Virus record (IMG/VR): IMGVR_UViG_2585427964_000003
Strand: one strand, 5' to 3'
DNA from: a virus
Lineage: Duplodnaviria > Heunggongvirae > Uroviricota > Caudoviricetes
DNA: 36,745 nucleotides
A program made the position numbers and the translations under genes. The notes beneath the pieces are model-generated. The model searched no databases. It saw only the letters and a list, made by a program, of their open reading frames with translations, and was not told the origin of the DNA. The stretch's first letter is position 1. Each line of letters opens with the position of its first letter. This document shows, in pieces, positions 7,557-35,339 of this stretch.

Positions 7557-8047
7557 GAGTTGTCCTTGGGGGCGTACTAATTGTTTTCAATACTAAAATA
7601 GCGCCGAGCTTGAAAAATTGCACACTTATAGTTCGATTTACCTCAACAGTTAAGGCTTCAACTTCCCCCATGCACCTCACCCAGCCCAAGACTGTATGAG
7701 GTCTGACAAAGAACTTCCTGACACTTGAAAACGAGGCAACGGCTAGGGTTTCTCGTAGGGCAAGGATTGAATACGAAGCCTGTATATTGCTCCGCGAACA
7801 CTGCTGAGGGCAGTTTAAATGTTGGGCGTTTATGTAGCCTTTCACTCACCAGCATGAGTTCAATGTCTGTGAGTTACCGACAACAATATAAAGGGGGTGG
7901 CATCATCATATATCCAAGCTAGAGTCAAATCCTCTAACTGGTTTTATGATCAGTGTCAATTGTTTGATTATTAAACGTTTACGAAGCAGCACGGGAGCCA
8001 TATAACTAATGGGCAGGTATAAGCCTGTATCACGAGGAATCAGTAAA

Positions 8048-14063: not shown

Positions 14064-14849
14064 ATGTTCAGTGATAATGTGACTAATGCGTGGTGGTTTA
14101 TCTCTTTGTATCTATTTTTATTAATAGCATTAACATTTGTTACCTTTGGTAAAAGTAATCTTATGAGGTTTATTGCACATCATTTCAATCTTGAGTATTC
14201 AGACAGAAAGTTAAAAATGCTCGACAAAAAATGGCGCGACATTCAACTATTTAAAATAATTAACGGAATCAATGTATCAGGCATCGAAGATGTGAGAATG
14301 ATACAGCAGGGGCTGATTGATGGAAAACTAAAAACATCGTATTTTTTCCTTACTCGCTTCTGGGGTGACATAACAAAACCACCACACATAATTAAAACAA
14401 TAATTGTAATTCTGGCCAGTATTATTTATATTCTCTTCGCATGTTATATACACAACAAACAATCCGCTATAGTAAGAGATGCCATAGGCATACCATATAA
14501 AAATATGATGTACTATGTTTATAGTGACAAAGTTCTTTTATCCTTCAAAAATAAAGCAGTTGAATTTAATAAAACTTATAGCCTTGCCGATTGCAAGAGA
14601 CTGCAAAACGTATTTATAAAAGACACACTTCCTGAAATCGCCTGCAATAAGCTCTTACAGCTAAACGAGGAGGACTCGGAATGGTTAAGTCAGGAGATTA
14701 AAGATAATAACAGCCAAAAAAAAGCATTATTAATAATATCCCTCATCTATTTCATTTCAGGTCTGGTTATATTCCTGTCATATACAAAATTCCTTTACGC
14801 CAATAAGAAGGTTGTAGAATACAAAGCATCAAATAAAAATCACTCATAA
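14064..14849 (+). CDS. Hypothetical integral membrane protein, three predicted TM helices (cargo in orf30-equivalent locus between V and S)
   Basis: 261-aa ORF on the opposite strand to the late operons; GAGGAGAG Shine-Dalgarno 4 nt before ATG; hydrophobic segments WWFISLYLFLLIALTFVTF, IIKTIIVILASIIYILFACYI and ALLIISLIYFISGLVIFLSY; strongly AT-rich with Lys/Asn/Ile-rich codon usage. Confidence 0.65.
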   Translation: MFSDNVTNAWWFISLYLFLLIALTFVTFGKSNLMRFIAHHFNLEYSDRKLKMLDKKWRDIQLFKIINGINVSGIEDVRMIQQGLIDGKLKTSYFFLTRFWGDITKPPHIIKTIIVILASIIYILFACYIHNKQSAIVRDAIGIPYKNMMYYVYSDKVLLSFKNKAVEFNKTYSLADCKRLQNVFIKDTLPEIACNKLLQLNEEDSEWLSQEIKDNNSQKKALLIISLIYFISGLVIFLSYTKFLYANKKVVEYKASNKNHS

Positions 14850-14920: not shown

Positions 14921-15373
14921 CTAACGCTCAAGGTGAGCCAGGATAATCTCTTCAATCATCTGCACATCCTCACCGGTAAAGCCGAGCAGAGGACGCGCCG
15001 GATAATCAATTTTCTTACCGTCTTTCCGGTTTTCTTCCGACAGACCGAACTGATGCACGCTGGCGATTTTCGGTGACTTCCCGCCGTAAAACTCCATTGA
15101 TGCCTGTTCCGGGCTGGCGCGGATATGCAAAAAACGACTGGTGATAAGTTTCGCAAACATTTTTCGCTTAACACGACCAGTCTTTTTTCTGGCGCTCTGC
15201 TGCTGGCGTGGCACGTAGGGTGTGCCGTCCGGGGCTTTCTGTGCCATCACCCGACGCTGCTGACTCTGCCGCAGACGTTTCGCCAGTTCGGCACTCAGTC
15301 GTCGACGCCCTGACGGTGACAGCGACTCAATCAGTCCGGTCAGCCGGTCTTCAAAACGCTTAAACTCATTCAT
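14921..15373 (-). CDS. S: Tail completion / virion morphogenesis protein gpS
   Basis: 150-aa ORF, size and position match P2 S. Confidence 0.88.
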   Translation of the reverse strand: MNEFKRFEDRLTGLIESLSPSGRRRLSAELAKRLRQSQQRRVMAQKAPDGTPYVPRQQQSARKKTGRVKRKMFAKLITSRFLHIRASPEQASMEFYGGKSPKIASVHQFGLSEENRKDGKKIDYPARPLLGFTGEDVQMIEEIILAHLER

Positions 15374-15833
15374 CCCACTTGCTCACCAGTTCGCCATTGA
15401 TATAAAGCTCCATCGGGCGGGTGACCGGCTCCGGCGGCGTGGGTTCCGGGATATTCTTCACATGCAGCGCGCCGTCCACCTCACTGACCAGCGTGCGCTC
15501 GGTCAGCATCAGGCTGATGCTGATATCAAAGCTGCTGTCATTGTTGATGTCTGCATAAAACGTGAAGCCCTTTTTCTGACCTTCGTAAGTGGTCATGATG
15601 TCGGGCTGATTTTCCCGCAGCCACGCCAGCACCGGCACGATGAGCAGGTCAAAATCACCGGTAAAGTCGGTCACAATCACATTGAGCGTGTAACGCTTTT
15701 CGAACGACAGCGACGTCGCCAGCGTGGAGGCAATACTCCCGTTATCCACGAATATCCGAAGCATCTCTGGACTGGTTTTCAGCACCGTGACGGCATCAGT
15801 CAGCGCCCTGCGCAGGCTGTCGGGTTTGAGCAT
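15366..15833 (-). CDS. R: Tail completion protein gpR
   Basis: 155-aa ORF, size and position match P2 R. Confidence 0.88.
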   Translation of the reverse strand: MLKPDSLRRALTDAVTVLKTSPEMLRIFVDNGSIASTLATSLSFEKRYTLNVIVTDFTGDFDLLIVPVLAWLRENQPDIMTTYEGQKKGFTFYADINNDSSFDISISLMLTERTLVSEVDGALHVKNIPEPTPPEPVTRPMELYINGELVSKWDE

Positions 15834-16086
15834 CGTTTTCGTCCTGACAGTGTTTAATCATTTTTACCTGGCTGGCACAGCGTGCCAGCGCGTTCTCAAG
15901 CTGCCGGATATCAGCACTTAAATCGCCGTTCGTCTCCGGGTCACTGCCCGGCATCGGGCAAAGGCTCACTTTCGGGCAGGCGTTGGCGACAATCACTGGC
16001 GTCGGTGCAGGCCGGGCGCTGGTGCAACCGGCGCACAGCATCAGGCAGGTCAGCACCGTACCAGCGGCGAAAATCTTCGTTTTCAT
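15796..16086 (-). CDS. lysC: Outer-membrane spanin lipoprotein LysC (Rz1-like)
   Basis: 96-aa ORF with signal peptide and lipobox (LMLCAGC), proline-rich; sits in an alternate frame overlapping the 3' end of lysB and the 5' end of R. Confidence 0.8.
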   Translation of the reverse strand: MKTKIFAAGTVLTCLMLCAGCTSARPAPTPVIVANACPKVSLCPMPGSDPETNGDLSADIRQLENALARCASQVKMIKHCQDENDAQTRQPAQGAD

Positions 16087-16366
16087 TCAGTAACCTCGTG
16101 ATGGTTTTCTCGCGCTGTGCTTCACGCTTCGCGGCGTTTTCCAGCTCCTGACGCAGTGCCACCTGCGCCAGCTCGTTTTTGTCTGCCCTGGTGAGGGCAA
16201 CATGAAGCTGATTTTTCAGCATGGTGATGGTCGTCTGCTGCCCGCTGGCGACGTTATTCGCCCTGTCCAGCGAGGCGCGCAGGCTGGCATTTTTGTGTTT
16301 CACCAGAAACAGACCGGACACCGCCAGCGATAACAACACGACCAGCACAATCATCAGCTTTGACAT
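15941..16366 (-). CDS. lysB: Inner-membrane spanin LysB (Rz-like)
   Basis: 141-aa ORF with N-terminal TM helix (LMIVLVVLLSLAVSGLFLV) and coiled-coil periplasmic region; P2 LysB is 141 aa. Confidence 0.85.
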   Translation of the reverse strand: MSKLMIVLVVLLSLAVSGLFLVKHKNASLRASLDRANNVASGQQTTITMLKNQLHVALTRADKNELAQVALRQELENAAKREAQREKTITRLLNENEDFRRWYGADLPDAVRRLHQRPACTDASDCRQRLPESEPLPDAGQ

Positions 16367-16779
16367 GGTTCCCGCCCCTCAAAACGCTGACGGCAGGCCG
16401 TGCGTATCAGCCGGAAGAACAGTGACGCCACGAGATAAATCAGCGCGGTAAAAATCCATCCGGCGGCGACCAGCGAGATAAATGTCGCCACCATCACCAC
16501 CAGAGCCGCCGCCCGTCTGCGCCACGGCACCGGCTGCAAAAACAGCGACGTGACAATCTTCACGGCCAGCGATTCCGGCGGCAGCTCCCGCCCGTAGCGT
16601 TCCAGCACATACTCCGTGGCATACACGCCGACACCACCGGCAACCACACAGATAACCGTCGCCAGAATCGCCCAGGCAGCGACAAAACTGACGGCCACGC
16701 TCTGCGGGTAAATCAGGGACAGTGCCAGCATCAGCGCCAGCGACACGTTCAGCATCAGTGAAAGGGATAATTTCTTCAT
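16354..16779 (-). CDS. lysA: Lysis regulatory membrane protein LysA
   Basis: 141-aa ORF with multiple TM segments, between K and lysB; P2 LysA is 141 aa. Confidence 0.82.
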   Translation of the reverse strand: MKKLSLSLMLNVSLALMLALSLIYPQSVAVSFVAAWAILATVICVVAGGVGVYATEYVLERYGRELPPESLAVKIVTSLFLQPVPWRRRAAALVVMVATFISLVAAGWIFTALIYLVASLFFRLIRTACRQRFEGREPCQS

Positions 16780-16793
16780 GGTGTTTACTCCGT

Positions 16794-17291
16794 TTAAGCC
16801 GGTACGCCGCCAGCGGTACGCCAGACGGTGACCAGTTTTTCCAGTGAATGCTCACGCTGACCGTAACCGGCACCCGGCAGGGACGCCCAGATATTGCGAC
16901 AGCGTGAAATGGCGCGCTCAATGCGTCCCGCCCGGATGTCATCCAGTGCACCGCGTTCGCGGATCAACTGAATGGCGAGTCTGTCCTGTGACAACGGACT
17001 GAAATCCGGCAGGGCAAGCTGTTTGCGGTAATGCGGCCAGAACAGGTAAAGCTGCTGATAGCGACCGGAGGCCGTGGATTTTTCACCGCGACGGTTAAAC
17101 ACCTTCGCCGGTCGGCCATGCGCGAACGGGTGGTCACTGTAGTCAGTGAAAATTTCCGGCTTCCCGTCCAGTCCGGTGACTATCACGTCATAGCCCCGGT
17201 TTTTCGTCAGCGGATGATTCGCCGTCCCTTCGGACACGGCCAGCATGTCGAGAAAGGCCGCGATATTCTGATGCGTGTTAATTACCGGCAT
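16794..17291 (-). CDS. K: Endolysin (lysozyme) gpK
   Basis: 165-aa ORF MPVINTHQNIAAFLDMLAVSEGT... (lysozyme-like catalytic E in SEGT context); size matches P2 K. Confidence 0.9.
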   Translation of the reverse strand: MPVINTHQNIAAFLDMLAVSEGTANHPLTKNRGYDVIVTGLDGKPEIFTDYSDHPFAHGRPAKVFNRRGEKSTASGRYQQLYLFWPHYRKQLALPDFSPLSQDRLAIQLIRERGALDDIRAGRIERAISRCRNIWASLPGAGYGQREHSLEKLVTVWRTAGGVPA

Positions 17292-17572
17292 TACGGTTTC
17301 CCCCTGCCCTTAAAGCGGCGCTGAATGGCAATCTCAATCACCTGATAACCGGCGATACCCAGCATGGAGCCGATGCCGCACACCGCAGGCAGTGACAGGT
17401 CAGGAAACTGCACCAGAACAACACCGGCAACCATCGAGACAAAACCACCGAGCAACATGCGCCCGATAAACAGACGCGGGGTGATGGGTTCACCACCGGC
17501 AAGCACCTTGCCGACAACAATCAGCACCCCAATCATGAAAAGCGACAGGACGCTTTTTTCTTCTGCTGTCAT
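17291..17572 (-). CDS. Y: Holin gpY
   Basis: 93-aa ORF with TM helices; size and position match P2 Y. Confidence 0.85.
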   Translation of the reverse strand: MTAEEKSVLSLFMIGVLIVVGKVLAGGEPITPRLFIGRMLLGGFVSMVAGVVLVQFPDLSLPAVCGIGSMLGIAGYQVIEIAIQRRFKGRGKP

Positions 17573-17575
17573 GCG

Positions 17576-17779
17576 TTACTCCCACAGATTGACAGTTTCA
17601 GCCACGGGCGCGGTCTGAACGTCGGGCAGTTCGACAGCGGTGCCGTGTGGCAGCACCGCACCCAGTTCAGCCAGTCCCGGATTTGCGGCGAGCACGGTCT
17701 CAACCACGCCCTCAGTGCGCCCGTAATACCGGACACAGATGGCGTCGAGCGTGTCGCTCTGTAGCGCAAAGGTCTTCAT
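17576..17779 (-). CDS. X: Tail protein gpX
   Basis: ATG at 17777-17779 (MKTFALQSD...) gives 67 aa as in P2 X; the start overlaps the L stop as ATGA. The ORF-track start at 17848 is upstream of this. Confidence 0.85.
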   Translation of the reverse strand: MKTFALQSDTLDAICVRYYGRTEGVVETVLAANPGLAELGAVLPHGTAVELPDVQTAPVAETVNLWE

Positions 17780-18288
17780 CAGATTTGACTCACGATGCAG
17801 CGCGGCTTGTCCTGGATACGCGCCACCGCCCAGCGCATATCCCGCCACAGTTCATCAATGGTGCTGTCAATGCTGTCAGCCTTCTTGTCACCTTTCGCAC
17901 TGGCATCCACGCCGCGATAACGCTCATAAAGCGACGCGGTCGCCATCGCACACACGGCGCGCTCGTAGTAAAAAACTTTGATGCTTTCACCGTCGATGTC
18001 GTCCGCCGGGACGTCCGCCAGACGCGTAAAACCGGCAGCAATTTTCTGTTCGCGGTACTCGTACAGCTCCGCATTCGTTTCAGCCATGCCTGACTTGATG
18101 GCCTCACGCAGACGGGCGGGGGCGACGGTCTGCTCAAGGCGCATACGTTCCCGGACGCGCTTCGGATCGATATCGGGAAAAAAGAACGTGTTTTTAATCA
18201 CCGGCTCGTCGCCTGCCGGTTGCGGGATGACCACCGTACCCTCACCGGACACGGGAGCCTCCTTTCGCGGAATAATCAGCGTCATCAT
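17779..18288 (-). CDS. L: Head completion protein gpL
   Basis: ATG-ATG at 18283-18288 (MMTLIIPRKE...) with a GAGGTAG Shine-Dalgarno gives 169 aa as in P2 L; the ORF-track start at 18348 is probably too far upstream. Confidence 0.85.
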   Translation of the reverse strand: MMTLIIPRKEAPVSGEGTVVIPQPAGDEPVIKNTFFFPDIDPKRVRERMRLEQTVAPARLREAIKSGMAETNAELYEYREQKIAAGFTRLADVPADDIDGESIKVFYYERAVCAMATASLYERYRGVDASAKGDKKADSIDSTIDELWRDMRWAVARIQDKPRCIVSQI

Positions 18289-18387
18289 GACTACCTCTGA
18301 AAAGTCGGGCGGTGGACGCCGGTGCAGTGTCAGGTGATTCACCCTCACTGACCGGCGTGCCGCCCTGGCGCGGGGCGCATTCGGTTG

Positions 18388-18465
18388 TTAACTGGCTTTC
18401 TTTTTCGGGCGTCCACGTTTTGCCGGTGTCACGCTCCGGGTCTTACGTGGGGCGCGGGTGGCCGC
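18388..18465 (-). pseudogene. M: Orphaned 3' end of terminase gene M, separated from its 5' part by the IS insertion
   Basis: Manual translation of the minus strand from the left target-site duplication reads in-frame AATRAPRKTRSVTPAKRGRPKKKAS-stop (TAA at 18390-18388), continuing the M frame interrupted at 21047. Confidence 0.7.
18461..18465. repeat. Target-site duplication GCCGC (left copy) of the IS21-family element
   Basis: GCCGC directly abuts the left IS terminus TGCGTATT...; an identical GCCGC at 21047-21051 abuts the right terminus. Confidence 0.7.
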
Positions 18466-18658
18466 TGCGTATTTTCATGAAAGGAGATCACTCAATAACT
18501 TCCATCGAGATCGGGTAATAACATTTGAACAGATCGCTGAATAACATCGATGGAGATCACTTTTGACTCATTTTGTTATTCAGTGATCTCCATCAATGTT
18601 ATTGGAACTTCACAGGTGTGTTGATCTGTATCTTTTGCCATTCCGGTAAAGGATACCT

Positions 18659-20200
18659 ATGCCAACAGTTCCAATTTCTATGAGAAAACTTAAAGAAATT
18701 CTTAGGCTTAAATACGGTGTTGGACTCAGCCATCGACAAATTGGTCGTAGTCTTGCAATCTCCCCTTCCGTTGTATCCAGATATGCTAATCGGGCGGCTC
18801 AACTTGGCATAAAGCAGTGGCCCTTACCTACAGGATGGGATGATACAAAACTAAAACATGCGTTCCTTCAGACCCAGGTTAAGATGAAGAAGCACTCTCT
18901 GCCTGACTGGGCTACAGTACACCGGGAACTGCGTAATAAATGCGTGACGCTGCAGCTACTCTGGGAAGAATACTGTGAGCGTAATCCAGGCGGTTTTTAC
19001 AGCTATAACCATTACTGCCGGATGTACCGTGAATGGCTCAAAACCACTTCACCATCAATGCGTCAGGTACATAAAGCTGGCGAAAAACTTTTCGTTGATT
19101 ACTGTGGACCTACCGTTGGCGTTACCGACCCTGAGACCGGAGAAATAAGAACTGCTCAGGTCATCGTAGCTGTTCTCGGGGCATCAAGTTACACATGGGC
19201 AGAGGCCACCTGGTCTCAGCAGCTTGAAGACTGGGTGATGAGTCATGTTCGCTGCTTCCAGTGGTTGGGTGGCGTTCCTGAACTTGTTGTTCCGGACAAT
19301 CTGAAAAGCGCCACATCCAGGGCATGTAAGTATGATCCTGACGTTAACCCTACCTACCAGCAGATGCTTGAGCATTATAATGTCGCAGTTTTGCCTGCGC
19401 GGCCACGTAAACCGAAAGATAAAGCCAAAGCTGAAGTTGGCGTTCAGGTTGTTGAACGCTGGATCATGGCCCGAATCAGGCATGAGATCTTCTACAGCCT
19501 TGCATCGCTTAATCAGCGCATTCGGGAGTTGCTGGAAAGACTGAATAACAAAATAATGCAGAAGTTGGGTTATTCACGTGCAGAACTCTTCATCCAGCTT
19601 GATAAACCCGCACTGAAGCCTCTTCCTGAAGCCAGTTACAGTTACACCCTGGTGAAGAAAGTCAGAGTTCATGCCGATTACCACGTGGAAATCGACAAAC
19701 ATTACTACTCGGTTCCATGTTCGCTGTTAGGCCAGCAACTGGAAGCATGGATCTCCGGAGAACTGGTAAGACTCTTCAATCAGGGGCAGGAGGTTGCTGT
19801 GCACCCGCGCAAGCGTACTTATGGCTACAGTACCCGCAACGAGCACATGCCTGAAGCTCATCGACAGCATGCCACCTGGACGCCAGAGCGTCTTCTGGAA
19901 TGGGCGGGGCACATAGGCAGTGAAACTCATAGTTATGTGCTTCATATACTGAACTCTCGTCCACATCCGGAACAAAGCTATCGCTTCTGCCTTGGACTCC
20001 TGAACCTTCATAAAAAATACAGTAAAGCCAGACTTAATGCAGCATGTGCAAGAGCTCTGAAAACAAAGGTATGGCGTCTGTCAGGTATTAAATCGATCCT
20101 GGAAAAAGGTCTGGATAAACAACCTGTTCAGGATCCAAAACCAGATCTGTTATCCACGATGGAACACGAAAACGTACGCGGCAGTGAGTATTACCACTGA
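18659..20200 (+). CDS. istA: IS21-family transposase IstA
   Basis: 513-aa ORF with N-terminal helix-turn-helix (LSHRQIGRSLAISPSVVSRY) and a DDE-type integrase core; AAGGA Shine-Dalgarno before the ATG. Confidence 0.85.
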   Translation: MPTVPISMRKLKEILRLKYGVGLSHRQIGRSLAISPSVVSRYANRAAQLGIKQWPLPTGWDDTKLKHAFLQTQVKMKKHSLPDWATVHRELRNKCVTLQLLWEEYCERNPGGFYSYNHYCRMYREWLKTTSPSMRQVHKAGEKLFVDYCGPTVGVTDPETGEIRTAQVIVAVLGASSYTWAEATWSQQLEDWVMSHVRCFQWLGGVPELVVPDNLKSATSRACKYDPDVNPTYQQMLEHYNVAVLPARPRKPKDKAKAEVGVQVVERWIMARIRHEIFYSLASLNQRIRELLERLNNKIMQKLGYSRAELFIQLDKPALKPLPEASYSYTLVKKVRVHADYHVEIDKHYYSVPCSLLGQQLEAWISGELVRLFNQGQEVAVHPRKRTYGYSTRNEHMPEAHRQHATWTPERLLEWAGHIGSETHSYVLHILNSRPHPEQSYRFCLGLLNLHKKYSKARLNAACARALKTKVWRLSGIKSILEKGLDKQPVQDPKPDLLSTMEHENVRGSEYYH

Positions 20201-20211
20201 TACGGGATCCA

Positions 20212-20961
20212 ATGATGAATCATCTTTACGAACAACTGACCGCACTTAAACTCACCGGCTTCCGTGATGCGCTTAAAAAGCAACTTGCTCAGCCGGGCAC
20301 ATACCAGGAGCTGGGCTTCGAAGAACGCCTGTCATTACTGACAGCAGAAGAACTAACCTGCCGTGAAAACAGGAAGGCAGAGCGTCTGATCAAACATGCA
20401 CGGTTCAGACTTAATGCTGAGTTATCAAAGCTGGATTATCGTAACAATAGAGGGCTGGACAGGGCCCTCATCCGTTCACTCAGTCAGGGAAACTGGTTAA
20501 CCCTGAAACAAAATATTTTACTGACCGGGGCCACCGGCAGCGGTAAAACGTTCCTGGCATGTGCACTTGGTCATAATGCCTGCCGACAGGGATACAAGGT
20601 CTACTATTATCGCCTTAAAGCGCTGATGGAACAGTGCTATCAGGGGCATGCTGATGGAAGATACAGCAAACTTTTGACCAGGCTGAATAATAGCGATCTG
20701 CTGCTTCTGGATGACTGGGGGCTGGAACCTCTCTCATCAGAACAGCGTAGCGACCTGCTGGAAATAGTGGATCTGATGTACCAACGAGGCTCAATCATCG
20801 TAGTGAGCCAGTTGCCGGTGGAAAACTGGTACAAAATGATCGGAGACTCCACACATGCGGATGCCATCCTAGATCGACTGGTTCATGGCAGTATCAAGAT
20901 CGAACTTAAAGGAGAATCAATGCGGAAAATACAATCTCCGTTGACCGAAGGAGATCAGTGA
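20212..20961 (+). CDS. istB: IS21-family ATP-binding helper protein IstB
   Basis: 249-aa ORF with Walker A (GATGSGKT) and Walker B (LLLLDDWG), the typical IstB AAA+ architecture, immediately downstream of istA. Confidence 0.88.
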   Translation: MMNHLYEQLTALKLTGFRDALKKQLAQPGTYQELGFEERLSLLTAEELTCRENRKAERLIKHARFRLNAELSKLDYRNNRGLDRALIRSLSQGNWLTLKQNILLTGATGSGKTFLACALGHNACRQGYKVYYYRLKALMEQCYQGHADGRYSKLLTRLNNSDLLLLDDWGLEPLSSEQRSDLLEIVDLMYQRGSIIVVSQLPVENWYKMIGDSTHADAILDRLVHGSIKIELKGESMRKIQSPLTEGDQ

Positions 20962-21018
20962 AGGTAATTTAAAAACGGTTCTGTGAAAGTGACACGAACC
21001 GATCTCCATCGATGTTAC

Positions 21019-21711
21019 TCACCGATCTCCTTCACGGTAATACGCAGCCGCTTTGGGCTGCGGCTTCGGTTTCAGCTCCCGCTCCAGTCGTTCAATCTCT
21101 TTTTTGACGCCTGCCTGACAGTCGAGCTGTGTCGCACGTTGCAGGTGCGCCAGCGCCCCTGCGGCATCACCAGCGTCACGCAGAAACAGACCGGTGATTT
21201 TGTGCAGCTTTGCGCGCACTTCATCAGGCATGTCTGCCGTGGCGGTAAGTTCAAGGGTGTCCGTCAGCAGGCGGGTATCCACGGATTCACCGGCAGCGTG
21301 AGCGCGCATGGCCGCGAGTGCCACTTCCTCGGTGAACATGTACGGCGGGGTGCGGCGGTGTTTACCCGGCATGGTCAGACCGTACTTCAGGGCATAACGG
21401 GCAATCTCCAGCGCACCGGCAATATCGCCGGTATCCAGACGCCACAGCATGACCGTCATCAGAATGTCATCCTGTGCACCTTTGCCCTGCTCCAGCACGC
21501 CGTTCACCCACGGCAACCAGAACGGCAGCAGTTCGCGTTTTTTCGCGGCCTTCAGCTCTTTTGAATAAATCGCTTTCAGTGTGCGCTGGTCTGCGGCGAG
21601 CTTAACCAGCATCTGCTCATAGACAGTTGCATGTCGCAGCGGGGCGGCTTCCCGCTGCGCGGTCATCGCTGCCGAGACCCGCATCATGTGGCGCTGTGCG
21701 GGACTCGTCAT
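21019..21711 (-). pseudogene. M: Terminase small (endonuclease) subunit gpM, 3' end interrupted by IS insertion
   Basis: 230-aa ORF MTSPAQRHMMRVSAAMTAQ...; its last 8 codons (AYYREGDR-stop) are encoded by the IS right terminus. Native sequence runs up to the GCCGC duplication at 21047-21051. Confidence 0.8.
21047..21051. repeat. Target-site duplication GCCGC (right copy)
   Basis: Identical 5-mer to 18461-18465, directly flanking the right IS terminus. Confidence 0.7.
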
Positions 21712-21714
21712 CGG

Positions 21715-22788
21715 TTACGCTCCCGGCTCTGCGGTCGCCCTGGCCGGTGTGGAGAAATCACCGACCTTAATTTTTTCCACCAGACAACCGGCGGCGTAGT
21801 CTTCCACCACGTAATCAATGTTCATTGACTCGTAGTTCTCCACGCGGTCGAGTTTCGGGTTTTCCACAATCACGCGGCGATGGCTGTCATCCATGTAGTA
21901 GATGGACAGGTTTTCCAGCTTCGTGATGAGCATCGCATCCGCCGGGAAGTACGGGACGCGTACCGCCGGCAGGTTACCGATGCGTTTCTGGCTGATGATG
22001 ACGTCAGCGGCCAGCATTTCGCTGTTGTCCTGCTCCTTGTTGACGATGGGGAAATACTTGTCCGCCAGTAGCTGACGTCCCACAATCACCACAAGGTCAG
22101 GGTCTTCCTGATACCACGGCTCAATCAGGTTGTTGGTCGCATCCATCACCAGTGCATCGAGGCTGGCATAATCACCGCCCTTACCCACGCGGATGACCTC
22201 AGAGGTCGTGTGACCTTCCTCGTCAGTGACCTTGCTCATCACGCGCGCCGGGGCTTCATTGCGGTATTTCTGCAGCCAGCCGACCGCCACATCCTGCAGC
22301 ATCGGATTGCTGCTGCGGTCAGAGGTTTCGGCACGCTTCACGCCGTTAAAACCGGCCATGATGAAATCAAGGGACTGGCGTTTGATAATGGCGTTACGGA
22401 TACGGAGCTGGAAATCCTGATAACGCGCCCACAGGTCAAGCGTTTTGTAGCGGATATAAAAATCGAAGTTAATCTGGTCGCATTCGTACTTGTTTGACGC
22501 CAGCTTCGAGAAGTCCTTCGGCTGACGCTCGGTGCCACCGGCGGTGTCGGTGGTGCTGGCGATGGAGCCGGTGACACCAATACCAATTTTTTCCCCTTTC
22601 ATTTCGCTGACCGGCACAATGTTGATGCGGGTCAGAAAGTCAGAGGACTCCTGCATGGTGTTCATCAGGGTCTGGGTGACCGACGGTTCAACGGTGAATT
22701 TTTTCGACACATCACCGGCGTCGATGCCGTTCAGTTCGGCAACACGGGACAGGTAAGCATTAAATTTAAAGCGGGTTTCCTGGCGCAT
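21715..22788 (-). CDS. N: Major capsid protein gpN
   Basis: 357-aa ORF, size and position match P2 N. Confidence 0.92.
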   Translation of the reverse strand: MRQETRFKFNAYLSRVAELNGIDAGDVSKKFTVEPSVTQTLMNTMQESSDFLTRINIVPVSEMKGEKIGIGVTGSIASTTDTAGGTERQPKDFSKLASNKYECDQINFDFYIRYKTLDLWARYQDFQLRIRNAIIKRQSLDFIMAGFNGVKRAETSDRSSNPMLQDVAVGWLQKYRNEAPARVMSKVTDEEGHTTSEVIRVGKGGDYASLDALVMDATNNLIEPWYQEDPDLVVIVGRQLLADKYFPIVNKEQDNSEMLAADVIISQKRIGNLPAVRVPYFPADAMLITKLENLSIYYMDDSHRRVIVENPKLDRVENYESMNIDYVVEDYAAGCLVEKIKVGDFSTPARATAEPGA

Positions 22789-22846
22789 AGTTTTTCCTGA
22801 AATTAAGGGTTAATCGTGAAGGTTTTCCCGGACTGACTGACACCGG

Positions 22847-23701
22847 TCAGCAGTTCGTCATCAGGGCGTCACCGCCACCACCGGTGGCCTTGCTGCGGCG
22901 CTGCTGGGTCAGACTTTCGGTGTGGTCGAGACTGTTTTTCAGGCGGGTGAATGCCTGGCTGGTTTCATCCGCCCTGTCAGTCACCTCCTGCTTAAGTGCG
23001 GAAAAGGCGTTTTCCATCTCAGCGAGGCGCTGCTCAGTGGCGCTCAGTTTTTCCTGCACATGTTCAGCAACAGCGGTCACCGCTTCATGCACGTCATTCA
23101 GACGGGCGTCATCGCTGGCCTGTTTACGGCCAAAAATGGATTTCACCTTTTCGGTCAGGGCGGTGAACACGGTTTCAGGCAGGTCTTCAAATTCCAGCTC
23201 AACGGGCGTTGCCACTGAAATCAGGTTTTCAGGGCTTAATTTGAAGCGGTTCAGAGGGTTGTGTTTTGCCGTGCGGCAGAATTCCAGGTATTCCGTACCG
23301 AGGCTTGCCGGGTCATCGGTGACGGCCAGACCCACCAGATAACATTTGCCTGTGTTGGCAAAGTTCGGCTGAATTTCCATTGAGGTATAGACCTTCTGCG
23401 CGGCCTTGTTCATCGCGATAAGGTCATCGGTCGGGGTGATTTTCGCAAACAGCGCCCATTTGCCTTTCAGCGCCGAATCATCGTCAATCTTTTCGGCCTT
23501 CAGTTCGACCACATCGCCATAACGCTTAAAAATGCCGTCAGGCAGGATGCCGCGCAGATGTTCCAGGTTAATGCGGCAACCATAGACACGCGGGTCAAAG
23601 GTTTCGGCCATTTCCTGAATATCCTGCGCACTGATGACACGCCCGTCACAGGTGTCACCCTCAACGCCGATACGAAAGAATTTTGAGACTTTTTTTGCCA
23701 T
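22847..23701 (-). CDS. O: Capsid scaffolding protein gpO
   Basis: ATG at 23699-23701 (MAKKVSKFFRIG...) gives 284 aa as in P2 O; the ORF-track start at 23767 is further upstream. Confidence 0.88.
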   Translation of the reverse strand: MAKKVSKFFRIGVEGDTCDGRVISAQDIQEMAETFDPRVYGCRINLEHLRGILPDGIFKRYGDVVELKAEKIDDDSALKGKWALFAKITPTDDLIAMNKAAQKVYTSMEIQPNFANTGKCYLVGLAVTDDPASLGTEYLEFCRTAKHNPLNRFKLSPENLISVATPVELEFEDLPETVFTALTEKVKSIFGRKQASDDARLNDVHEAVTAVAEHVQEKLSATEQRLAEMENAFSALKQEVTDRADETSQAFTRLKNSLDHTESLTQQRRSKATGGGGDALMTNC

Positions 23702-23874
23702 TGTCAGGAGTCCTGAATAGTGATTAGAGGAGTCACATGTCGGCATCAGTTTCCCGACGATGCGCATCCTCCGCCATCAGTCCCGGATGGCTTATCACTG
23801 ACACAACAGCACCTTAGCGAATCGCAGGGCGCGACTCAGTAGCCTTGCCGTGTATTCATCACGGCGAGGTATTC

Positions 23875-26708: not shown

Positions 26709-26850
26709 ACACCCCGTCATCACGCCCTCACACGCTCACCACCGCACAAAACAGCCCGCAGGCAAACCAACGCCCCGGCTAACAATCTAAACACCATCAT
26801 GACGCGCTCAGACGCTGAAAAAATAAAATCAGCACCACCGCCAGCGCGCA

Positions 26851-26869
26851 GTGCTTTCCCCGCCTCGCC
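26851..26869. other. cos cohesive-end site (P2-type 19-nt sequence)
   Basis: GTGCTTTCCCCGCCTCGCC is the reverse complement of GGCGAGGCGGGGAAAGCAC, which I recall as the P2 19-nt cohesive end; it lies between Q and the cargo/A region as expected. Confidence 0.8.
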
Positions 26870-27016: not shown

Positions 27017-27901
27017 TCAGGCGCAAGTTGGCATTGAGACCCCTTTCAGGGTATTAGGAATAATTATTTCAGGAGAAAAAATCATCACTTCCTCTCCAGA
27101 TTTTTTGAGATGTGCTGTATATTGCAATGAATACTCAACTTGCGGAAATCCATTATAAATATCTTTAATTTCCTTAGCGTTATCATAAGAAACAAGCCAA
27201 TTTGGGAAATTAATTTCTGTGAGTTTCTTCATAACCAATACATGGTCATCATGCTCATAAAAATTCCTGTAAAGCCCTTGCCCTTTAATATAGTAAGGAG
27301 GATCCAAATACAAAAGAATTTTATTTTTATCCACCTTTCCCATATTATCCATAAAATTCAAGGCATCAAGAAAATCCAAAGCATCCAGATTAGTTACTAC
27401 TATTCTTTGATTATAATTTGCTATCTTCTCAATTCTTGAAATTAAATCCGCCCTGTTAAAGCGAACATCCATTTTCCATTTTCCATTTTGTGATTTCCCG
27501 CCTATAACCCCCGCCTTGAGAATACCTGAACGATTTGTTCTATTTAAGAAAAACGCAGCAAAGCCAACCTCAAGCTTAGTAAACTCAGAAGGATTCGAAA
27601 TAACATAGCGATGAAAAGACCATTCATCCATATCTATCTTTGCTCGGCTAATAAGTCGGCAAAGCTCATCAGTATCACTAACAACAGATGACCAAAAAGA
27701 ATAAACAGCAAAATCTGCATCATTTATATAGATTTTACGGACATACTCTTCCAATAATAATTCTAAAGCCACCCCTGCACCACCAGCGTAAGGTTCTGCA
27801 TATGCTCCATCATTCAACGAGTTTTTTTCAATAACATCTTTTAAAAAGTAAGATAACTTACCTTTCCCGCCGGGGTATCTTAATGGAGTATAAAATTTCA
27901 T
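27017..27901 (-). CDS. Dam-class (D12 family) N6-adenine DNA methyltransferase
   Basis: 294-aa ORF with GAGGG Shine-Dalgarno; motifs YPGGKGKL near the N-terminus, PYAGGAG (SAM-binding FxGxG-like) and LDPPYY (catalytic DPPY). Strongly AT-rich; lies in the tin/old-equivalent position. Confidence 0.8.
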   Translation of the reverse strand: MKFYTPLRYPGGKGKLSYFLKDVIEKNSLNDGAYAEPYAGGAGVALELLLEEYVRKIYINDADFAVYSFWSSVVSDTDELCRLISRAKIDMDEWSFHRYVISNPSEFTKLEVGFAAFFLNRTNRSGILKAGVIGGKSQNGKWKMDVRFNRADLISRIEKIANYNQRIVVTNLDALDFLDALNFMDNMGKVDKNKILLYLDPPYYIKGQGLYRNFYEHDDHVLVMKKLTEINFPNWLVSYDNAKEIKDIYNGFPQVEYSLQYTAHLKKSGEEVMIFSPEIIIPNTLKGVSMPTCA

Positions 27902-27970: not shown

Positions 27971-29476
27971 TCACTCACTCCAAATAAGGCTTAATAACAA
28001 CTCAAAGTTATCCCACTCAGTGTTGACAGCCTCTTTTGAGGGAATTAAGTGTGGGTTATGTACATACTGCTGCAATGAACCATCATGTTTAGTTATTTGG
28101 CTCGAGAAAGTTATTACAGCCGTACATTGACTCCCCGTCATCTTTTTATTTTCCCGAAGGAAATTAGCACACATTTTAACCTTATCATGAAGCCCTGGAG
28201 TTCTATGTGGTTCCTTAAATTGTAACTTGTTTTCTTCAACAAAAGTGCTTACAGAGAGATCTATAAATATTCTCAACAATATTGAGATAGCATTAGGGGT
28301 GTTATCAAATGTCAGATGCGACTTAAGCTCATTAAATATTCTAGAGCATTTCTTATGCCCTCTAAAATTAAATTTCACATAAGATGGCACCAACACATTA
28401 CGATCTACTTTAGGAGGAGTTTTTCCCTTGTTTTTATTCTGTTCCGTGCCCGAAACTTTAGATTTACTCTCTTCTGTGCCTACATGTCTAGAATAATCAT
28501 CTTCCTGTTTATCCACACCTGTATTCTTTAAGGCATCACCTTCTGAAAGACCTACTTTCTTTACACTCACAGATGCATCATTTTTGTCAATAGAATCATG
28601 TTTTTTCTCTGTAAGAAAAGATTTAGGCTCCAGTAAACTCCACGGCTTATCTAAAAGAGATTCTGAAGGTTTTATTTTTTGTTCAATAATAAATGTAACC
28701 CTGTCATCTTGGCTACGAATCCTATTAACAGTAAAACAAGCCTTACCTTTATCATCCTCTTCAATCATTACATCTAAAATATTTTTTAATTGTGCACAAA
28801 AACGTTCATAAGGCTGATATGAGTATAGAACTCCATTAATGCTTTTTAAATTAAAATAATCCCTCACCTTTAAATCACCAAAAAGACGCGTGATGTTTGT
28901 GATTTTTAAAAGTCTTTTTTTAGCAATTATCTCTTTATATAAATCAGTATTGAACTCTATAAATGTAAGTATTTGATTACCAAATGACTGCTTACCCATC
29001 CTAGCCAGATGTCGTGCTTTTTCTGTTGCAGTCCATTCAACTCTTCCAACTCCAGCATTTTGACCAGTATGCTTTAAATTGACCCAATGCTCATATTCAT
29101 CATCGTCAAAAAGAACGCAGTTATCTATAACATTAATATCTTTAAGCTGAGTAATCTTAAGTTTTTCAAAAGCTTTCCGTGCTTTTTCTGTTGGTGCAAG
29201 TCTAGGAGAGTGTAAAAGTTTAAGGGCTGTAACTCGACGATTACCTTCAGCAACGACGAAAAAGCCAGATTCCTCTTCACTAGGATAAACTAATATGTTT
29301 TCAGACGGATCTAAACCTTTCGAAGCAATATCTTTAGCCAAGCGATAAATGCGGTCGTACTGCAAGTCAAGCATCTTGGCAATAGCATCACGCTGATTTT
29401 CTGCTGACGTCGGGAAACGAGGGTTATCAACATCCAAAAGTAACTTATTGATATTCATTGATTTTAGTTGATTCAT
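27971..29476 (-). CDS. ParB/Srx-fold nuclease-domain protein with long C-terminal extension (cargo gene)
   Basis: N-terminal region LLLDVDNPRF ... ILVYPSEEESGFFVVAEGNRRVTALKLL carries the ParB N-terminal domain signature (GxRR). A Lys/Glu/Ser-rich low-complexity linker is followed by a roughly 150-aa C-terminal domain of unrecognised type. Start chosen at ATG 29474-29476 (AGAGGA Shine-Dalgarno 8 nt upstream, 501 aa); the ORF track extends to 29545 (524 aa). AT-rich. Confidence 0.7.
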   Translation of the reverse strand: MNQLKSMNINKLLLDVDNPRFPTSAENQRDAIAKMLDLQYDRIYRLAKDIASKGLDPSENILVYPSEEESGFFVVAEGNRRVTALKLLHSPRLAPTEKARKAFEKLKITQLKDINVIDNCVLFDDDEYEHWVNLKHTGQNAGVGRVEWTATEKARHLARMGKQSFGNQILTFIEFNTDLYKEIIAKKRLLKITNITRLFGDLKVRDYFNLKSINGVLYSYQPYERFCAQLKNILDVMIEEDDKGKACFTVNRIRSQDDRVTFIIEQKIKPSESLLDKPWSLLEPKSFLTEKKHDSIDKNDASVSVKKVGLSEGDALKNTGVDKQEDDYSRHVGTEESKSKVSGTEQNKNKGKTPPKVDRNVLVPSYVKFNFRGHKKCSRIFNELKSHLTFDNTPNAISILLRIFIDLSVSTFVEENKLQFKEPHRTPGLHDKVKMCANFLRENKKMTGSQCTAVITFSSQITKHDGSLQQYVHNPHLIPSKEAVNTEWDNFELLLSLIWSE

Positions 29477-29832
29477 CAACATATCCTCTGTTGAATCTTT
29501 ATGATAAAAATTAATTATTTTTATCATAAATGATAGCGTAAACATAGTCTTATGAACGACATCAGCCCTGAAGCTTCAAAACTATCATTTACGTTTGCGA
29601 GGCACCATCTATCACATTGATTTATAATAAGTATCTTTATCTTCACTGCATTGCTCTCAAAAAATCACATAGATGGAAATTCCCCGTTGACACACTCCCA
29701 AGTGATGCAGATACATTTCAAGTGCTTCATACACATGATAACGGCTATCCCCCTAAATTCTGTGCGTTTCTTTTCCCTCCAGCACAAGGTTGAAATATCT
29801 TGCGTGCAGCTTTACTTTGTGAATCTTTGTCA

Positions 29833-32124
29833 TTATATCCGCGCCATTACTGTTGAGAATCCCGGCCACTCATCAGCGACCGGATACGTGAATTTTTTCC
29901 CGTCATAATTTACGGTCGCGCCACGCGCCAGCACCTCAAGCTCCCATCGTTGCGGCCTGATACCGTTCTGAGCGAGGTCAACGCGGATACGGGTAATTTG
30001 CAATCGTTCCGACCGGGTCAGTCTGGCCGACGGTGCTATTTCATGCGGTTTTAACGGGCTTCCGGCTCTTTGCTGACGATTTGGTGTTCTCAGTCCGTGT
30101 TTTAATGCGCCCCTGAGCGCCCTCACGACCTCCGGGTCATTCCATTCGATAACACCGTCATCAACCAGATTAAGCACTGCTGCGACGTGCTCAGAAGGTG
30201 TGGGAGCCGGTAACGAAGTATCACCACTGGTGAGCTTTCCACAGTTATTGACAGGACTCCGAGGCGCGGCGATGCCGCTTTTTAAAGTCAAAGGCTCAAC
30301 GACCGGAACTTTCAGCACAATGCGCCAGTCCGTCGTTCTGGTGATATGAATATGACGCGCGCCGAGATGCGGCGCGTAAATGCCGACCACTCTCTCGACT
30401 TCTTCCTCATACTCGTTAACGTCATCTGACGGGCTACGGGCGACCCTGACAGTCTGACAATCGCGCGGGACATTTGCCCCACCCTGCGCGCTGATATACA
30501 ACGCAAAATCACCACTGTCTGCGGCGGCGCGTGCAGCCTCGACGCGTTCGTCAAACTCATCAGCAATGCTGACGCCGCGAGGCAATTTGCGTAGCTCACG
30601 GTAAGCCCCCATTGTCGGCAGGCCAACCGTTTTAAATTGCGGGATGCGCCACGTTGACGCCCATGCGGTAACAGCCGCGGCAGTATCTTTAAGCGGCTTA
30701 CCGGTATCGTTATCGAGCTGACCATCCAGTGCATAGCCGTCGATATTTTTTGAAATGTATTTCGCGATATATCCCGCAGCACCGCCCCGGTTAAGGTGTT
30801 TTGCCTGAAAACGGTTTCGCGCAGCGCCTCTTTCGTCACCATCCTCTTTGAGCGCATAGCGACGCATGATTTCGATAATCTGGTTACGCTGGCGTGGATT
30901 ACAAAAAAGCATCATATGCCAGTGCGGCGTTCCGTCGTGGTGTGGCTCGACGACACGCAAACCGTAGACCTGTAAATCATTATCCTTGAATGCCGTGCGC
31001 ATCAGGCTCCAGATACGGCAGAGATAACGCTGCGCATCCTTTGGATTAAATGCCTCATCGTTCCAGCCGTGATTAAGCTGAACGGTTTTACTTTCGCCTT
31101 TTCCGACCTGACGTGTCGGGTGATACTTTGACGGCGCGGTCAGCGTGATAAACATCCCCACATCACCCTCTGCGGCGGCGTAACGCTCAATACCGGCAAT
31201 GGTGTTCATCAGCTCCATCCGGCGAATTTCAGGATTAGAAATACTGCCCATCACCTTACTGATAAGGTCGATGCGCTCGCCGGTTTCCCTGTTTTCAAGG
31301 TCACACGATTTAAGAAATTCCAGATTTGCCTGGCGGCGCGCACGCACATCACGAATGGCATGTTTACTGGCATAAGGAGAACGGTCTTTATTGACCTCCC
31401 CGACAGCTATCAGTAAAGCTTCATGCCAGCGCATACGCTGGCCTTTAAGCTGATGAGTCCACCACTCATCGTTAAACAGGCGGGCAATGGCAGAATATGC
31501 CTGCCTCGTGGTTATCTGTCCTTTACGGTATTTTTTCCAGTAGAGCGGGGAAATATTGAAAGCACGTGCAGCGCCAGCAACATGACCATACAGATGATCC
31601 TGCGCCTCATCCGTAAACAGTGATTCTTTTTCGCCATGCGCATCCACCCAGGCATCGCAGAGTTCCTCATACATCATGAAAAGCTGCGATGAAATACGGG
31701 CGGCAAACTTTTTCAGCTCCTTGTCATTCATCCCCGGCAGACGCGCATAGTGGTCACGCTCAGCCAGAAACAGCAACGACGCGTCGGTGTTCATTTCATG
31801 GCGCTGATTCACGCGCTCAATGCGCGGCCATAAACGACGCTGAAAAGTGGATGTGAGGAAATAAAACCCGTGTACCGGGCTTTTATTGCGCCGGATGTAG
31901 TCATAGCGTGAAGTAAACAGCGAGCGCAAAAAGTAAGGCAGGCGGTTAATCGTGGATAAAACCCCTTGCACCTGACGCATCTCGTCACGTGTAAGGGGTC
32001 TTTCGCGCCCGACGGCCTCGCGTGGCGCGTTCCATGCATAAGCACCGGTAAACGTCTTACCGGTGCCTGCAGCAAATGCTGACGTAGTTACGCAGGTGTA
32101 TTGCTCCTGGAAAGAATGACTCAT
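29833..32124 (-). CDS. A: Replication initiation endonuclease gpA (rolling-circle)
   Basis: 763-aa ORF MSHSFQEQYTCVTTSAFAAGTGKTFTGAYAWNAP...; size and position match P2 A (about 761 aa from memory). Confidence 0.92.
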   Translation of the reverse strand: MSHSFQEQYTCVTTSAFAAGTGKTFTGAYAWNAPREAVGRERPLTRDEMRQVQGVLSTINRLPYFLRSLFTSRYDYIRRNKSPVHGFYFLTSTFQRRLWPRIERVNQRHEMNTDASLLFLAERDHYARLPGMNDKELKKFAARISSQLFMMYEELCDAWVDAHGEKESLFTDEAQDHLYGHVAGAARAFNISPLYWKKYRKGQITTRQAYSAIARLFNDEWWTHQLKGQRMRWHEALLIAVGEVNKDRSPYASKHAIRDVRARRQANLEFLKSCDLENRETGERIDLISKVMGSISNPEIRRMELMNTIAGIERYAAAEGDVGMFITLTAPSKYHPTRQVGKGESKTVQLNHGWNDEAFNPKDAQRYLCRIWSLMRTAFKDNDLQVYGLRVVEPHHDGTPHWHMMLFCNPRQRNQIIEIMRRYALKEDGDERGAARNRFQAKHLNRGGAAGYIAKYISKNIDGYALDGQLDNDTGKPLKDTAAAVTAWASTWRIPQFKTVGLPTMGAYRELRKLPRGVSIADEFDERVEAARAAADSGDFALYISAQGGANVPRDCQTVRVARSPSDDVNEYEEEVERVVGIYAPHLGARHIHITRTTDWRIVLKVPVVEPLTLKSGIAAPRSPVNNCGKLTSGDTSLPAPTPSEHVAAVLNLVDDGVIEWNDPEVVRALRGALKHGLRTPNRQQRAGSPLKPHEIAPSARLTRSERLQITRIRVDLAQNGIRPQRWELEVLARGATVNYDGKKFTYPVADEWPGFSTVMARI

Positions 32125-35333: not shown

Positions 35334-35339
35334 TATAAT
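35334..35339 (+). promoter_or_regulatory. Candidate -10 hexamer TATAAT for the repressor promoter (Pc)
   Basis: Perfect TATAAT 18 nt upstream of the C ATG; no convincing -35 at 17 bp spacing (AATCGC), so weak. Confidence 0.3.

Follow-up and report, generated by a model that had tools for sequence, protein, structure and literature searches.

A single copy of the insertion sequence ISEc12 has transposed into codon 222 of gene M, which encodes the small terminase subunit of an otherwise intact P2-type prophage, and the insertion is flanked by the usual 5-bp target duplication. The window, by which we mean the whole stretch of DNA that was analysed, is 36,745 bp long, or 34,159 bp if the IS is taken out. 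Three consequences, a truncated product (M') without its AT-hook-like motif, polarity on genes L to S and a larger genome, probably act jointly to disable the prophage. The lesion is real and well explained, and it represents an ordinary means of disabling a prophage. The coordinates of the features are collected in Table 1.

Table 1. Features of the interrupted late region and of cos (positions in the window).
Feature	Position	Strand	Remarks
S	14921-15373	-	
R	15366-15833	-	
lysC	15796-16041	-	
lysB	15941-16366	-	
lysA	16354-16779	-	
K	16794-17291	-	
Y	17291-17572	-	
X	17576-17779	-	
L	17779-18288	-	
P_O operon genes now behind the IS	14921-18288	-	All ORFs intact
Orphaned 3' end of M	18388-18465	-	Residues 223-245 plus stop, duplicated bases first; collinear with intact M of strain A5
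Codons for KRGRPKKK	18397-18420	-	AT-hook-like core of the lost tail; R-G-R-P-x-K conservation among homologues
Left target-site duplication GCCGC	18461-18465	.	Direct repeat; point of overlap of both BLAST segments to L004, an uninterrupted prophage
ISEc12 (IS21 family), complete copy	18466-21046	+	2,581 bp, 5'-TG...CA-3'; RefSeq match
Left terminal inverted repeat region	18466-18605	+	IstA-site-like cores GAGATC(A/G)(C/G) at 18484, 18507 and 18553; inverted copy at 18583
istA, transposase	18659-20200	+	513 aa; Pfam rve and Mu-transpos_C_2; NCBIfam transpos_IS21, 310 bits (cut-off 160)
istB, AAA+ helper ATPase	20212-20961	+	249 aa; Pfam IstB_IS21, E 2e-67; NCBIfam IS21_help_AAA, 270 bits (cut-off 200)
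Right terminal inverted repeat	20990-21046	+	Two cores (20999, 21022), 23 bp spacing
M', truncated small-terminase gene	21019-21711	-	230 aa; 222 native codons, 8 IS-coded (AYYREGDR) and TGA
Right target-site duplication GCCGC	21047-21051	.	Direct repeat; BLAST against L004
Genes of the P_O operon upstream of M	21715-23701	-	N 21715-22788, O 22847-23701; intact
P_O, candidate Ogr-type late-promoter element	23788-23805	-	TGTGTCAGTGATAAGCCA; 5 of 6 positions of TGT-N12-ACA
cos	26815-26869	-	19-nt P2 cohesive-end sequence GGCGAGGCGGGGAAAGCAC (26851-26869) and A/T tract (26815-26834), 17 bp apart

Gene M and its truncated product

Gene M lies between the major capsid gene N and the head-completion gene L in the P2-type late cluster. 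Packaging in P2 requires gpM together with gpP (PMC7552001). M' is a member of the Pfam family Phage_term_smal (PF05944, E 3e-48; score 163.8 bits, cut-off 29.4, covering residues 35-164) and of phrog_74, terminase small subunit. It is identical to WP_050427764.1. The IS provides the third base of codon 222, a synonymous change, and the protein ends in ...KPQPKAA followed by the IS-coded residues.

The orphaned 3' end on the other side of the element reads AATRAPRKTRSVTPAKRGRPKKKAS* and has 25 codons rather than 24. The duplicated target site accounts for its first five bases, namely codon 1 and two bases of codon 2, so that the native residues that have been lost number 23 (223-245). When rejoined across the duplication, M is 738 nt long and encodes 245 aa, and a stretch of 282 nt spanning the rejoined site has uninterrupted counterparts of 100% identity in five complete E. 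coli genomes. In strain A5 the annotation gives the gene 738 nt and names its 245-aa product a terminase subunit (WP_000203442.1). The first-pass annotation had reconstructed a native protein of this length and had proposed that its basic C-terminal tail was removed, and both statements are borne out, the 23 native residues being replaced by AYYREGDR.

The native protein shares 97-99% amino acid identity over all 245 residues with the M proteins of P2-type phages (PF05944), among them Wphi, HK241 and P2 isolates, and the gene has the same position between N and L. It differs from them here in that the last 23 residues are swapped for 8 IS-coded ones, and the native allele has 245 aa whereas some P2-type alleles have 247 aa (744-nt CDS).

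The insertion site

Target duplications of 5 bp are the rule for IS21 (PMC10122671), and one was present in every case among seven other ISEc12 insertions that were inspected. The reading frame of M is restored by duplication lengths of 2, 5 or 8 bp only, and the direct repeat that is seen is 5 bp long.

The source is a draft assembly, in which an assembler might have put an IS copy wrongly in M. The chance of this is negligible. The two 5-bp repeats match perfectly, neither junction is missing, the whole IS is spanned by a single 3.25-Mb contig, and the identical M'-IS junction and 230-aa product (WP_050427764.1) recur in two NCBI assemblies and in two independent sequencing-run assemblies. 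As the same product and junction are found in independent assemblies, and 20.7 kb of the window match GCA_000714895.1 with 100% identity, the insertion is not an assembly artefact. When the exact junction was searched for among 5,426 complete E. coli genomes, no genome had an insertion at this site. Four apparent junction matches were rejected, these being ISEc12 elsewhere in M.

The element

The inserted sequence combines an istA-istB pair, imperfect TG...CA inverted repeats, a 5-bp duplication and near-identity to ISEc12, which places it in the IS21 family, whose members have istA, for an HTH plus DDE transposase, directly followed by istB, for an AAA+ helper. Over its full length it is 100% identical to RefSeq copies labelled 'IS21-like element ISEc12 family'. 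The element begins with TGCGTATT and ends with AATACGCA, and the GAGATC(A/G)(C/G) core occurs three times at the left end and twice at the right end; multiple L1/L2-type repeats are usual at IS21 ends (PMC10122671). Its GC content is 47%, against 56-58% in the flanking DNA. Sequence, istA-istB, ends, repeated internal sites and 5-bp target duplication are those of ISEc12, and the element itself shows no difference; the insertion site alone is distinctive, and it occurs in no complete RefSeq E. coli genome. Because the IS is 100% identical to other ISEc12 copies, the insertion must be recent. ISEc12 is present in 1,366 of the 5,426 complete E. coli genomes. The RefSeq annotation starts istB one codon later than we do.

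The lost C-terminal tail

The AlphaFold model of M has a mean pLDDT of 91, its last helix comprises residues 203-213, and residues 214-245 are coil with a pLDDT of 67-76. The predicted core is a helical repeat of the TPR-like kind, in which no DNA-binding domain can be recognised. M' is predicted to retain the entire folded core and to lose 23 disordered residues; because the truncation falls beyond the last predicted helix, loss of M function is uncertain. The tail is specific to a clade, about half of 112 diverse family representatives ending no more than 10 residues past the core. Since it is absent in about half of the distant members, the tail is not required for the core function of the family, and M' might stay active.

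R-G-R-P-x-K is invariant in 101 of 102 close (enterobacterial) homologues, which have 82 distinct tails, and the remaining tail columns are 30-66% conserved; distant members of the family do not have the motif. As this core is invariant while the surrounding tail varies freely, selection on it is implied. An AT-hook consists of a G-R-P core with flanking Arg/Lys in a disordered region, and KRGRPKKK has this composition in a tail that is predicted to be coil. The HMGA AT-hook likewise has a GRP core with flanking Arg/Lys in a disordered basic segment, but the M tail has no profile match, its DNA binding is putative and its context is bacterial and viral. The Pfam AT_hook model, which is very short, did not match M even at E <= 10; HMMER filters drop weak matches. 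Many M homologues carry a 186-type tail variant, KRGRGRPRK, which matches the first HMGA1 hook. A PDB sequence search with gpM gave no match, the family having no deposited structure, and no paper that connects AT-hooks with small terminases was found.

The one putative DNA-contact element that can be recognised in M of this clade is the tail, and it may bind the A/T tract next to cos. For AT-hook binding in the minor groove of A/T-rich DNA the sign is circumstantial: the tract is conserved in composition and is separated by 17 bp from the cohesive end. The first-pass annotation had described the tail as basic and plausibly DNA-binding. The invariant AT-hook-like core and the lack of a DNA-binding domain in the folded core favour that description, but the tail is clade-specific and loss of function in M' is uncertain, so that the claim stands in part. 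We tentatively propose, as a possibility that we would not call probable, that the AT-hook of enterobacterial gpM positions an otherwise DNA-blind, TPR-like small terminase on the cos-adjacent A/T tract, and that the window holds a natural hook-less allele which would be packaging-dead even with read-through. Such a tail, with its conserved AT-hook-like motif, on a small terminase predicted to be TPR-like would offer a simple idea of how P2-type terminases find cos.

cos and genome size

The cohesive-end sequence has a single exact match in the window and none in 100 shuffles, and position 26869 aligns with base 1 (cosL) of P2 (AF063097). Across five phages the A/T tract by cos is conserved in its A/T richness, not in its sequence, and it lies between conserved GC-rich blocks. 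The isolated P2-type phages of E. coli and Yersinia that are listed have genomes of 29.2-34.8 kb. The interrupted genome (about 36.9 kb) is about 2 kb longer than any listed isolated E. coli P2-type phage.

Late transcription and polarity

The ONMLKRS genes of P2 form a single Ogr-dependent operon driven by P_O, and the late promoter consensus is TGT-N12-ACA (PMC3931495). The window contains four exact matches to this consensus, fewer than expected by chance, none of which is at a known late promoter; with one mismatch allowed, P_O and P_F are recovered. Consensus scanning detected neither a sigma-70-like nor a TGT-N12-ACA site between the IS and L, and between M and S a scan of this kind only found no promoter above background. 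The left end of the IS has no outward promoter above background (best candidate 8.5, null mean 8.7). In IS21 the outward -35 box is located in the right inverted repeat (PMC10122671), which here faces N, away from L. Genes L through S, whose distance from P_O has grown by 2.6 kb, agree in length with the annotation of the A5 prophage, which is uninterrupted.

The stop codon of M' (21019-21021) is followed by about 2.55 kb of antisense IS sequence, where the ORFs are short and lack ribosome-binding sites. Antisense IS RNA contains 10 hairpin-plus-T sites of the intrinsic terminator type, which is chance level (6.8 +/- 2.7 expected). Its composition (C 23.9%, G 23.5%) is not that of a C-rich, G-poor Rho-loading region, and because one 100-nt window alone has C-G >= 0.10, no strong Rho-loading site is predicted. 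An Rfam search of positions 17500-22000 gave no match.

Insertions of IS1 and IS2 in gal and lac are polar. Polar amber mutations are known in P2, and P4 Psu relieves them (PMC7552001). The present arrangement resembles classical polar IS insertions and the amber mutations of P2 late operons, the latter relieved by Psu, a Rho antagonist, in having a premature stop and a long untranslated stretch in a multi-gene operon without an internal promoter. It differs from the classical polar insertions in that polarity is a prediction here and the antisense IS RNA has no evident C-rich rut-like region or terminator. We consider polarity on L, X, Y, K, lysA/B/C, R and S to be likely.

Effect on the prophage

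M would be made as a 230-aa protein which keeps the folded helical-repeat core and lacks the disordered, basic 23-residue tail with its AT-hook-like motif. Late transcripts started at P_O would reach L to S only after about 2.55 kb of antisense IS RNA that is not translated. These genes appear to have no promoter of their own, and their expression would fall by Rho-type polarity, as it does with IS insertions and polar P2 ambers. The genome between cos sites would grow from about 34.2 to about 36.9 kb. Truncation, polarity and size would jointly prevent the prophage alone from producing infectious particles or lysing its host efficiently, and immunity, integration, replication and defence cargo would remain intact.

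The insertion could instead be nearly silent: M' would work, RNA polymerase would read past the IS, and the prophage would be viable, though its burst might be smaller. The position of the truncation beyond the last predicted helix, the many tail-less family members, terminator and rut signals that do not rise above background and the intact downstream ORFs are all consistent with this. We regard it as rather improbable, however, as selection is implied by the invariance of R-G-R-P-x-K within a clade whose tails otherwise vary freely, an operon known for polarity now has 2.55 kb of RNA that is not translated, and the genome is about 2 kb above any isolated E. coli P2-type phage listed. The reading that we prefer is a disabled prophage. 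The first-pass annotation had predicted polarity on L to S and a prophage that is likely to be defective unless the IS supplies an outward promoter. The IS does lie between P_O and L to S and no outward promoter was found in it, which supports both predictions; the former is weakened by the lack of a strong terminator or C-rich Rho site, and as regards the latter the loss of M' function is uncertain. For annotation we suggest that the prophage be marked as probably defective, although every other gene is intact, and that both fragments of M be merged into a single pseudogene.

ISEc12 in P2-like late regions

ISEc12 is found within the L-O region +/- 3.5 kb in 64 complete genomes (29 in one orientation and 35 in the other), a count of genomes in which clonal relatives are included; about 3-4 would be expected from its genome-wide density (5,553 places in 28 Gb). 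At least eight distinct sites were mapped, of which four are in M and the others in S, in the spacer between M and L, and in O. The eight mapped duplications (GCCGC, CCGTT, TCACC, GCATA, CTGAC, ACGCC, ACAGG and GCGGA) share no target consensus. Protein clusters described as 'partial terminase' are heterogeneous contig-end fragments and were left out of the counting of IS events. A specific hotspot in M was rejected, since S, N, O and the spacer between M and L are hit as well and there is no excess in M given the gene lengths. Orientation bias was rejected on the counts of 29 and 35 genomes, an apparent bias in the junction search being an ascertainment effect of the query design.

The lesion could be favoured by selection, in which case the prophage is grounded and neither lyses its host nor escapes, immunity and the PD-Lambda-5 cargo stay with the host, and the frequency of ISEc12 in late regions is explained. 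The number of genomes compared with expectation, the number of distinct sites and the intact PD-Lambda-5 defence pair point in this direction. The counts include clonal descent, however, and purifying selection against insertions elsewhere may also contribute to the contrast; IS accumulation in prophages is generally attributed to neutrality, and this allele is both recent, judging from the identity of the IS to other copies, and rare, being present in a handful of assemblies and 0 of 5,426 complete genomes. We think selection unlikely. A structural preference of ISEc12 for P2 late DNA, making the region a hotspot, would account for the same excess over chance, and IstB is described as picking deformable target DNA by its shape (PMC11208146). 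This is very doubtful, as the eight duplications have no shared consensus, the sites are scattered across 8.5 kb with both orientations represented, the share of M is no larger than expected from N and O once gene lengths are allowed for, and IS21 has no clear sequence specificity in vitro (PMC10122671). Late-region ISEc12 insertions may be a common route by which P2-like prophages are immobilised in E. coli, with immunity and defence cargo kept.

Induction and rescue

Apart from the insertion, ogr, cos and all other late genes are intact. The prophage repressor is short and of the P2 type, and P2 is the classic example of a temperate phage that is not inducible (PMC5009727, citing Bertani & Bertani 1970). 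Induction with mitomycin C, suggested in the first-pass annotation as a check, is thus ill suited to this prophage. E. coli genomes contain up to three copies of M, and a co-resident P2-like prophage could complement the lesion in trans. 'Defective' prophages are often rescued in trans (PMC2669165). The IS-riddled defective prophages of the E. coli O157 Sakai pool (PMC2669165) likewise include an otherwise complete prophage with an IS in a morphogenesis gene, but they have multiple defects and their partial rescue has been shown experimentally, whereas the prophage described here has a single lesion in a P2-type genome.

ISEc12 insertion in the small-terminase gene

The gene interrupted in this P2-type prophage is P2 M, which encodes the small terminase subunit gpM, and the interrupting element is ISEc12, with 100% identity to RefSeq copies carrying that annotation. 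Full-length ISEc12 is found in 1,366 of 5,426 complete E. coli genomes. Its ends are imperfectly inverted and carry GAGATC(A/G)(C/G) cores, three at the left end and two at the right end, with a spacing of 23 bp, and the flanking GCCGC repeat agrees with the 5-bp target duplications of IS21 elements (PMC10122671). Excision in silico of the element and one GCCGC copy restores a 738-nt M of 245 amino acids, the length annotated for the terminase subunit in E. coli strain A5, which carries an uninterrupted relative of the prophage. The restored protein has 97-99% identity with M of P2-type phages; its identity with the homologue in phage 186 is 67%. A 282-nt stretch across the rejoined site is present in 1,492 complete genomes, five of them with 100% identity.

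The insertion reported in the first-pass annotation is thus confirmed, together with its coordinates and the eight IS-encoded codons (AYYREGDR) that end the truncated M. The orphan 3' fragment has 25 codons, not 24, because its first five bases (codon 1 and two bases of codon 2) are the duplicated target; native residues 223-245 are lost. The 230-aa product and its junction are present, unchanged, in two NCBI assemblies, one of which matches the window identically over 20.7 kb, and in two independent read-set assemblies. The junction is absent from the 5,426 complete RefSeq E. coli genomes searched; the allele is real and belongs to a small lineage.

Features of the prophage and of the ISEc12 insertion
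Feature	Coordinates	Strand	Remarks
ogr	1-219		72-aa product, intact
230-aa cargo ORF, phrog_11802 (unknown function)	6864-7845	minus	Between FI and G, P2 Z/fun slot
261-aa ORF, phrog_2407 (unknown function)	14064-14849	plus	Opposite to neighbours; between S and V
Reconstructed M	18388-18465 and 21052-21711
GCCGC direct repeat	18461-18465 and 21047-21051		Flanks ISEc12
ISEc12	18466-21046		2,581 bp; first bases TG, last bases CA
IstA transposase		plus	513 aa
IstB ATPase		plus	249 aa
New stop of M	21019-21021
P_O-type element	23788-23805		5/6 positions of TGT-N12-ACA
cos and A/T tract	26815-26869		Cohesive-end match at 26851-26869
PD-Lambda-5 protein B, methyltransferase-like	27017-27901	minus	E 1e-121, intact
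PD-Lambda-5 protein A	27971-29545	minus	E 6e-168, intact
335-aa protein, PAPS-reductase domain	32121-33128	minus	Early operon, adjoins gene A
Integrase gene	35750-36745

The lost C-terminal tail

The element cuts M at residue 222, past the last predicted helix, sparing the core and removing the tail alone. This basic tail had been proposed to bind DNA. Full-length enterobacterial homologues of the P2/186 clade have 82 distinct tails with net charges of +8 to +12, in which R-G-R-P-x-K lies 5 to 8 residues short of the C-terminus in 101 of 102 proteins, the remaining tail positions being 30-66% conserved. The motif has the form of an AT-hook, with basic residues either side of a GRP core, and its retention in the clade strengthens the DNA-binding proposal. 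The tail is a clade-specific module, however, and no requirement of the family: among 112 diverse representatives with a complete core (50%-identity clusters), about half end 10 residues or fewer after the core, and tails that extend further vary and are often acidic. The Pfam AT-hook model did not match the M tail, and our literature search found no paper tying an AT-hook to a small terminase.

An A/T tract of 15-17 nt, flanked by two conserved GC-rich blocks, is separated from the cohesive end by 17 bp. Its A/T richness is kept across P2-type, 186-type, Klebsiella and Enterobacter phages and its sequence is not; speculatively, it might be a partner of the M tail. The P2 cos is intact beside the tract, whose composition was compared in five P2/186-type phages.

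Structure prediction, at high confidence, gives reconstructed gpM a TPR-like helical-repeat fold, which would differ from small terminases that combine a helix-turn-helix with an oligomerisation domain. A PDB sequence search detected no relative of the gpM family. The near-invariant AT-hook-like core on such a predicted TPR-like protein is modestly new.

Effects on late transcription and genome length

P2 has four Ogr-dependent late promoters, with ONMLKRS under P_O, the promoter upstream of O (PMC3931495); gpM and gpP are required for packaging, and polar amber mutations are suppressed by P4 Psu (PMC7552001). In the window, a P_O transcript that continues past the new stop runs through about 2.55 kb of RNA antisense to the IS, in which the ORFs are all short and lack ribosome-binding sites. 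A long untranslated RNA after a premature stop is the classical setting of Rho-dependent polarity. Two observations speak against polarity: hairpin-plus-T sites in this RNA are no more frequent than chance would give (10, with 6.8 +/- 2.7 expected), and the RNA shows no overall C-richness (C 23.9%, G 23.5%), an excess of C being confined to one 100-nt window. Some polarity on L, X, Y, K, lysA/B/C, R and S (L-S) is therefore likely. The ribosome-binding site of L itself (GAGG, 7 nt before the ATG) is retained.

In IS21 the right end carries a -35 box directed outward, and the left end a -10 box that serves istA (PMC10122671). The right end in the window points to N and not to L, and therefore supplies no promoter for L-S. 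Outward candidates at the left end scored 8.5 at best, against a mean best of 8.7 in random segments, and the stretch from the IS to L has neither a TGT-N12-ACA-type element nor a sigma-70-like site.

Beyond tail loss and polarity, the two effects named in the first-pass annotation, the element has a third: the prophage genome grows from about 34.2 kb to about 36.9 kb. Among the matches of our searches, isolated P2-type phages of E. coli and Yersinia measure 29.2-34.8 kb. The earlier interpretation is reasonable and can be demonstrated in part only. The mechanism, an IS knock-out probably accompanied by polarity, is that of many defective prophages, and prophages classed as 'defective' can be rescued by relatives in the same cell (PMC2669165). 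Genomes hold up to three copies of M. P2 is the textbook non-inducible temperate phage (PMC5009727). All components of the lesion are already catalogued and its novelty is low.

ISEc12 in other P2-like late regions

Insertions of ISEc12 are frequent in P2-like late regions: counted over L-O +/- 3.5 kb, the element is present in the orientation of the window in 29 complete genomes and in the opposite orientation in 35. Given its genome-wide density (5,553 places in 28 Gb), about 3-4 genomes would be expected among some 1,500 with this prophage type, a rough comparison uncorrected for clonal descent and for selection acting against insertions at other places. This high frequency is modestly new. 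The counts for the two orientations reject an orientation bias, the apparent bias being an effect of query design.

Seven other insertions were mapped, of which M has three, the 5' end of O two, and the M-L spacer and S one each. M is therefore no special hotspot. All seven have 5-bp duplications of unshared sequence. Overall at least eight distinct sites were mapped in the 64 complete E. coli genomes, both orientations included (loci L001-L003 and L009-L012). In strains 64.1 and GPEC673, which have the spacer insertion, M is intact, yet L-S are split from P_O. The insertion in S belongs to a P2-like prophage remnant (L012; E. coli VE-V10-F, NZ_AP027971.1) whose M is cut by a deletion abutting an oxidoreductase pseudogene; this locus is a later stage of prophage decay.

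Prophage layout and cargo genes

The prophage fills the window, which opens at the stop codon of ogr and closes where the integrase gene ends. The minus-strand late genes follow the P2 order (D, U, T, E, FII, FI, G, H, I, J, W, V, S, R, lysC/B/A, K, Y, X, L, M, N, O), with P and Q on the plus strand. The P2 cohesive-end sequence has a single exact match, which in alignment falls on base 1 of the P2 record AF063097. The strain A5 prophage is collinear and 95-98% identical except in the cargo and immunity regions, gene lengths equal those annotated there, and visible damage is confined to M. The immunity/integrase end (35339-36745) is unlike that of strain A5 from 34881 onward, where the alignment stops, and the integrase gene has 996 nt against 1,014 nt; the difference fits an exchange of modules between late and regulatory regions.

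A cargo pair matching the PD-Lambda-5 defence system occupies the P2 old/tin slot, which has Q/cos on one side and A on the other. In the Z/fun slot the phrog_11802 ORF is overlapped by a 142-aa ORF, and strain A5 has an abortive-infection gene instead. The phrog_2407 ORF had no defence or Pfam match above the cut-off; it is found in strain D5 too. The stretch encoding the PAPS-reductase-domain protein is unaligned with the strain A5 prophage, and the protein has weaker matches to the SspD, DndC and BrxP models.
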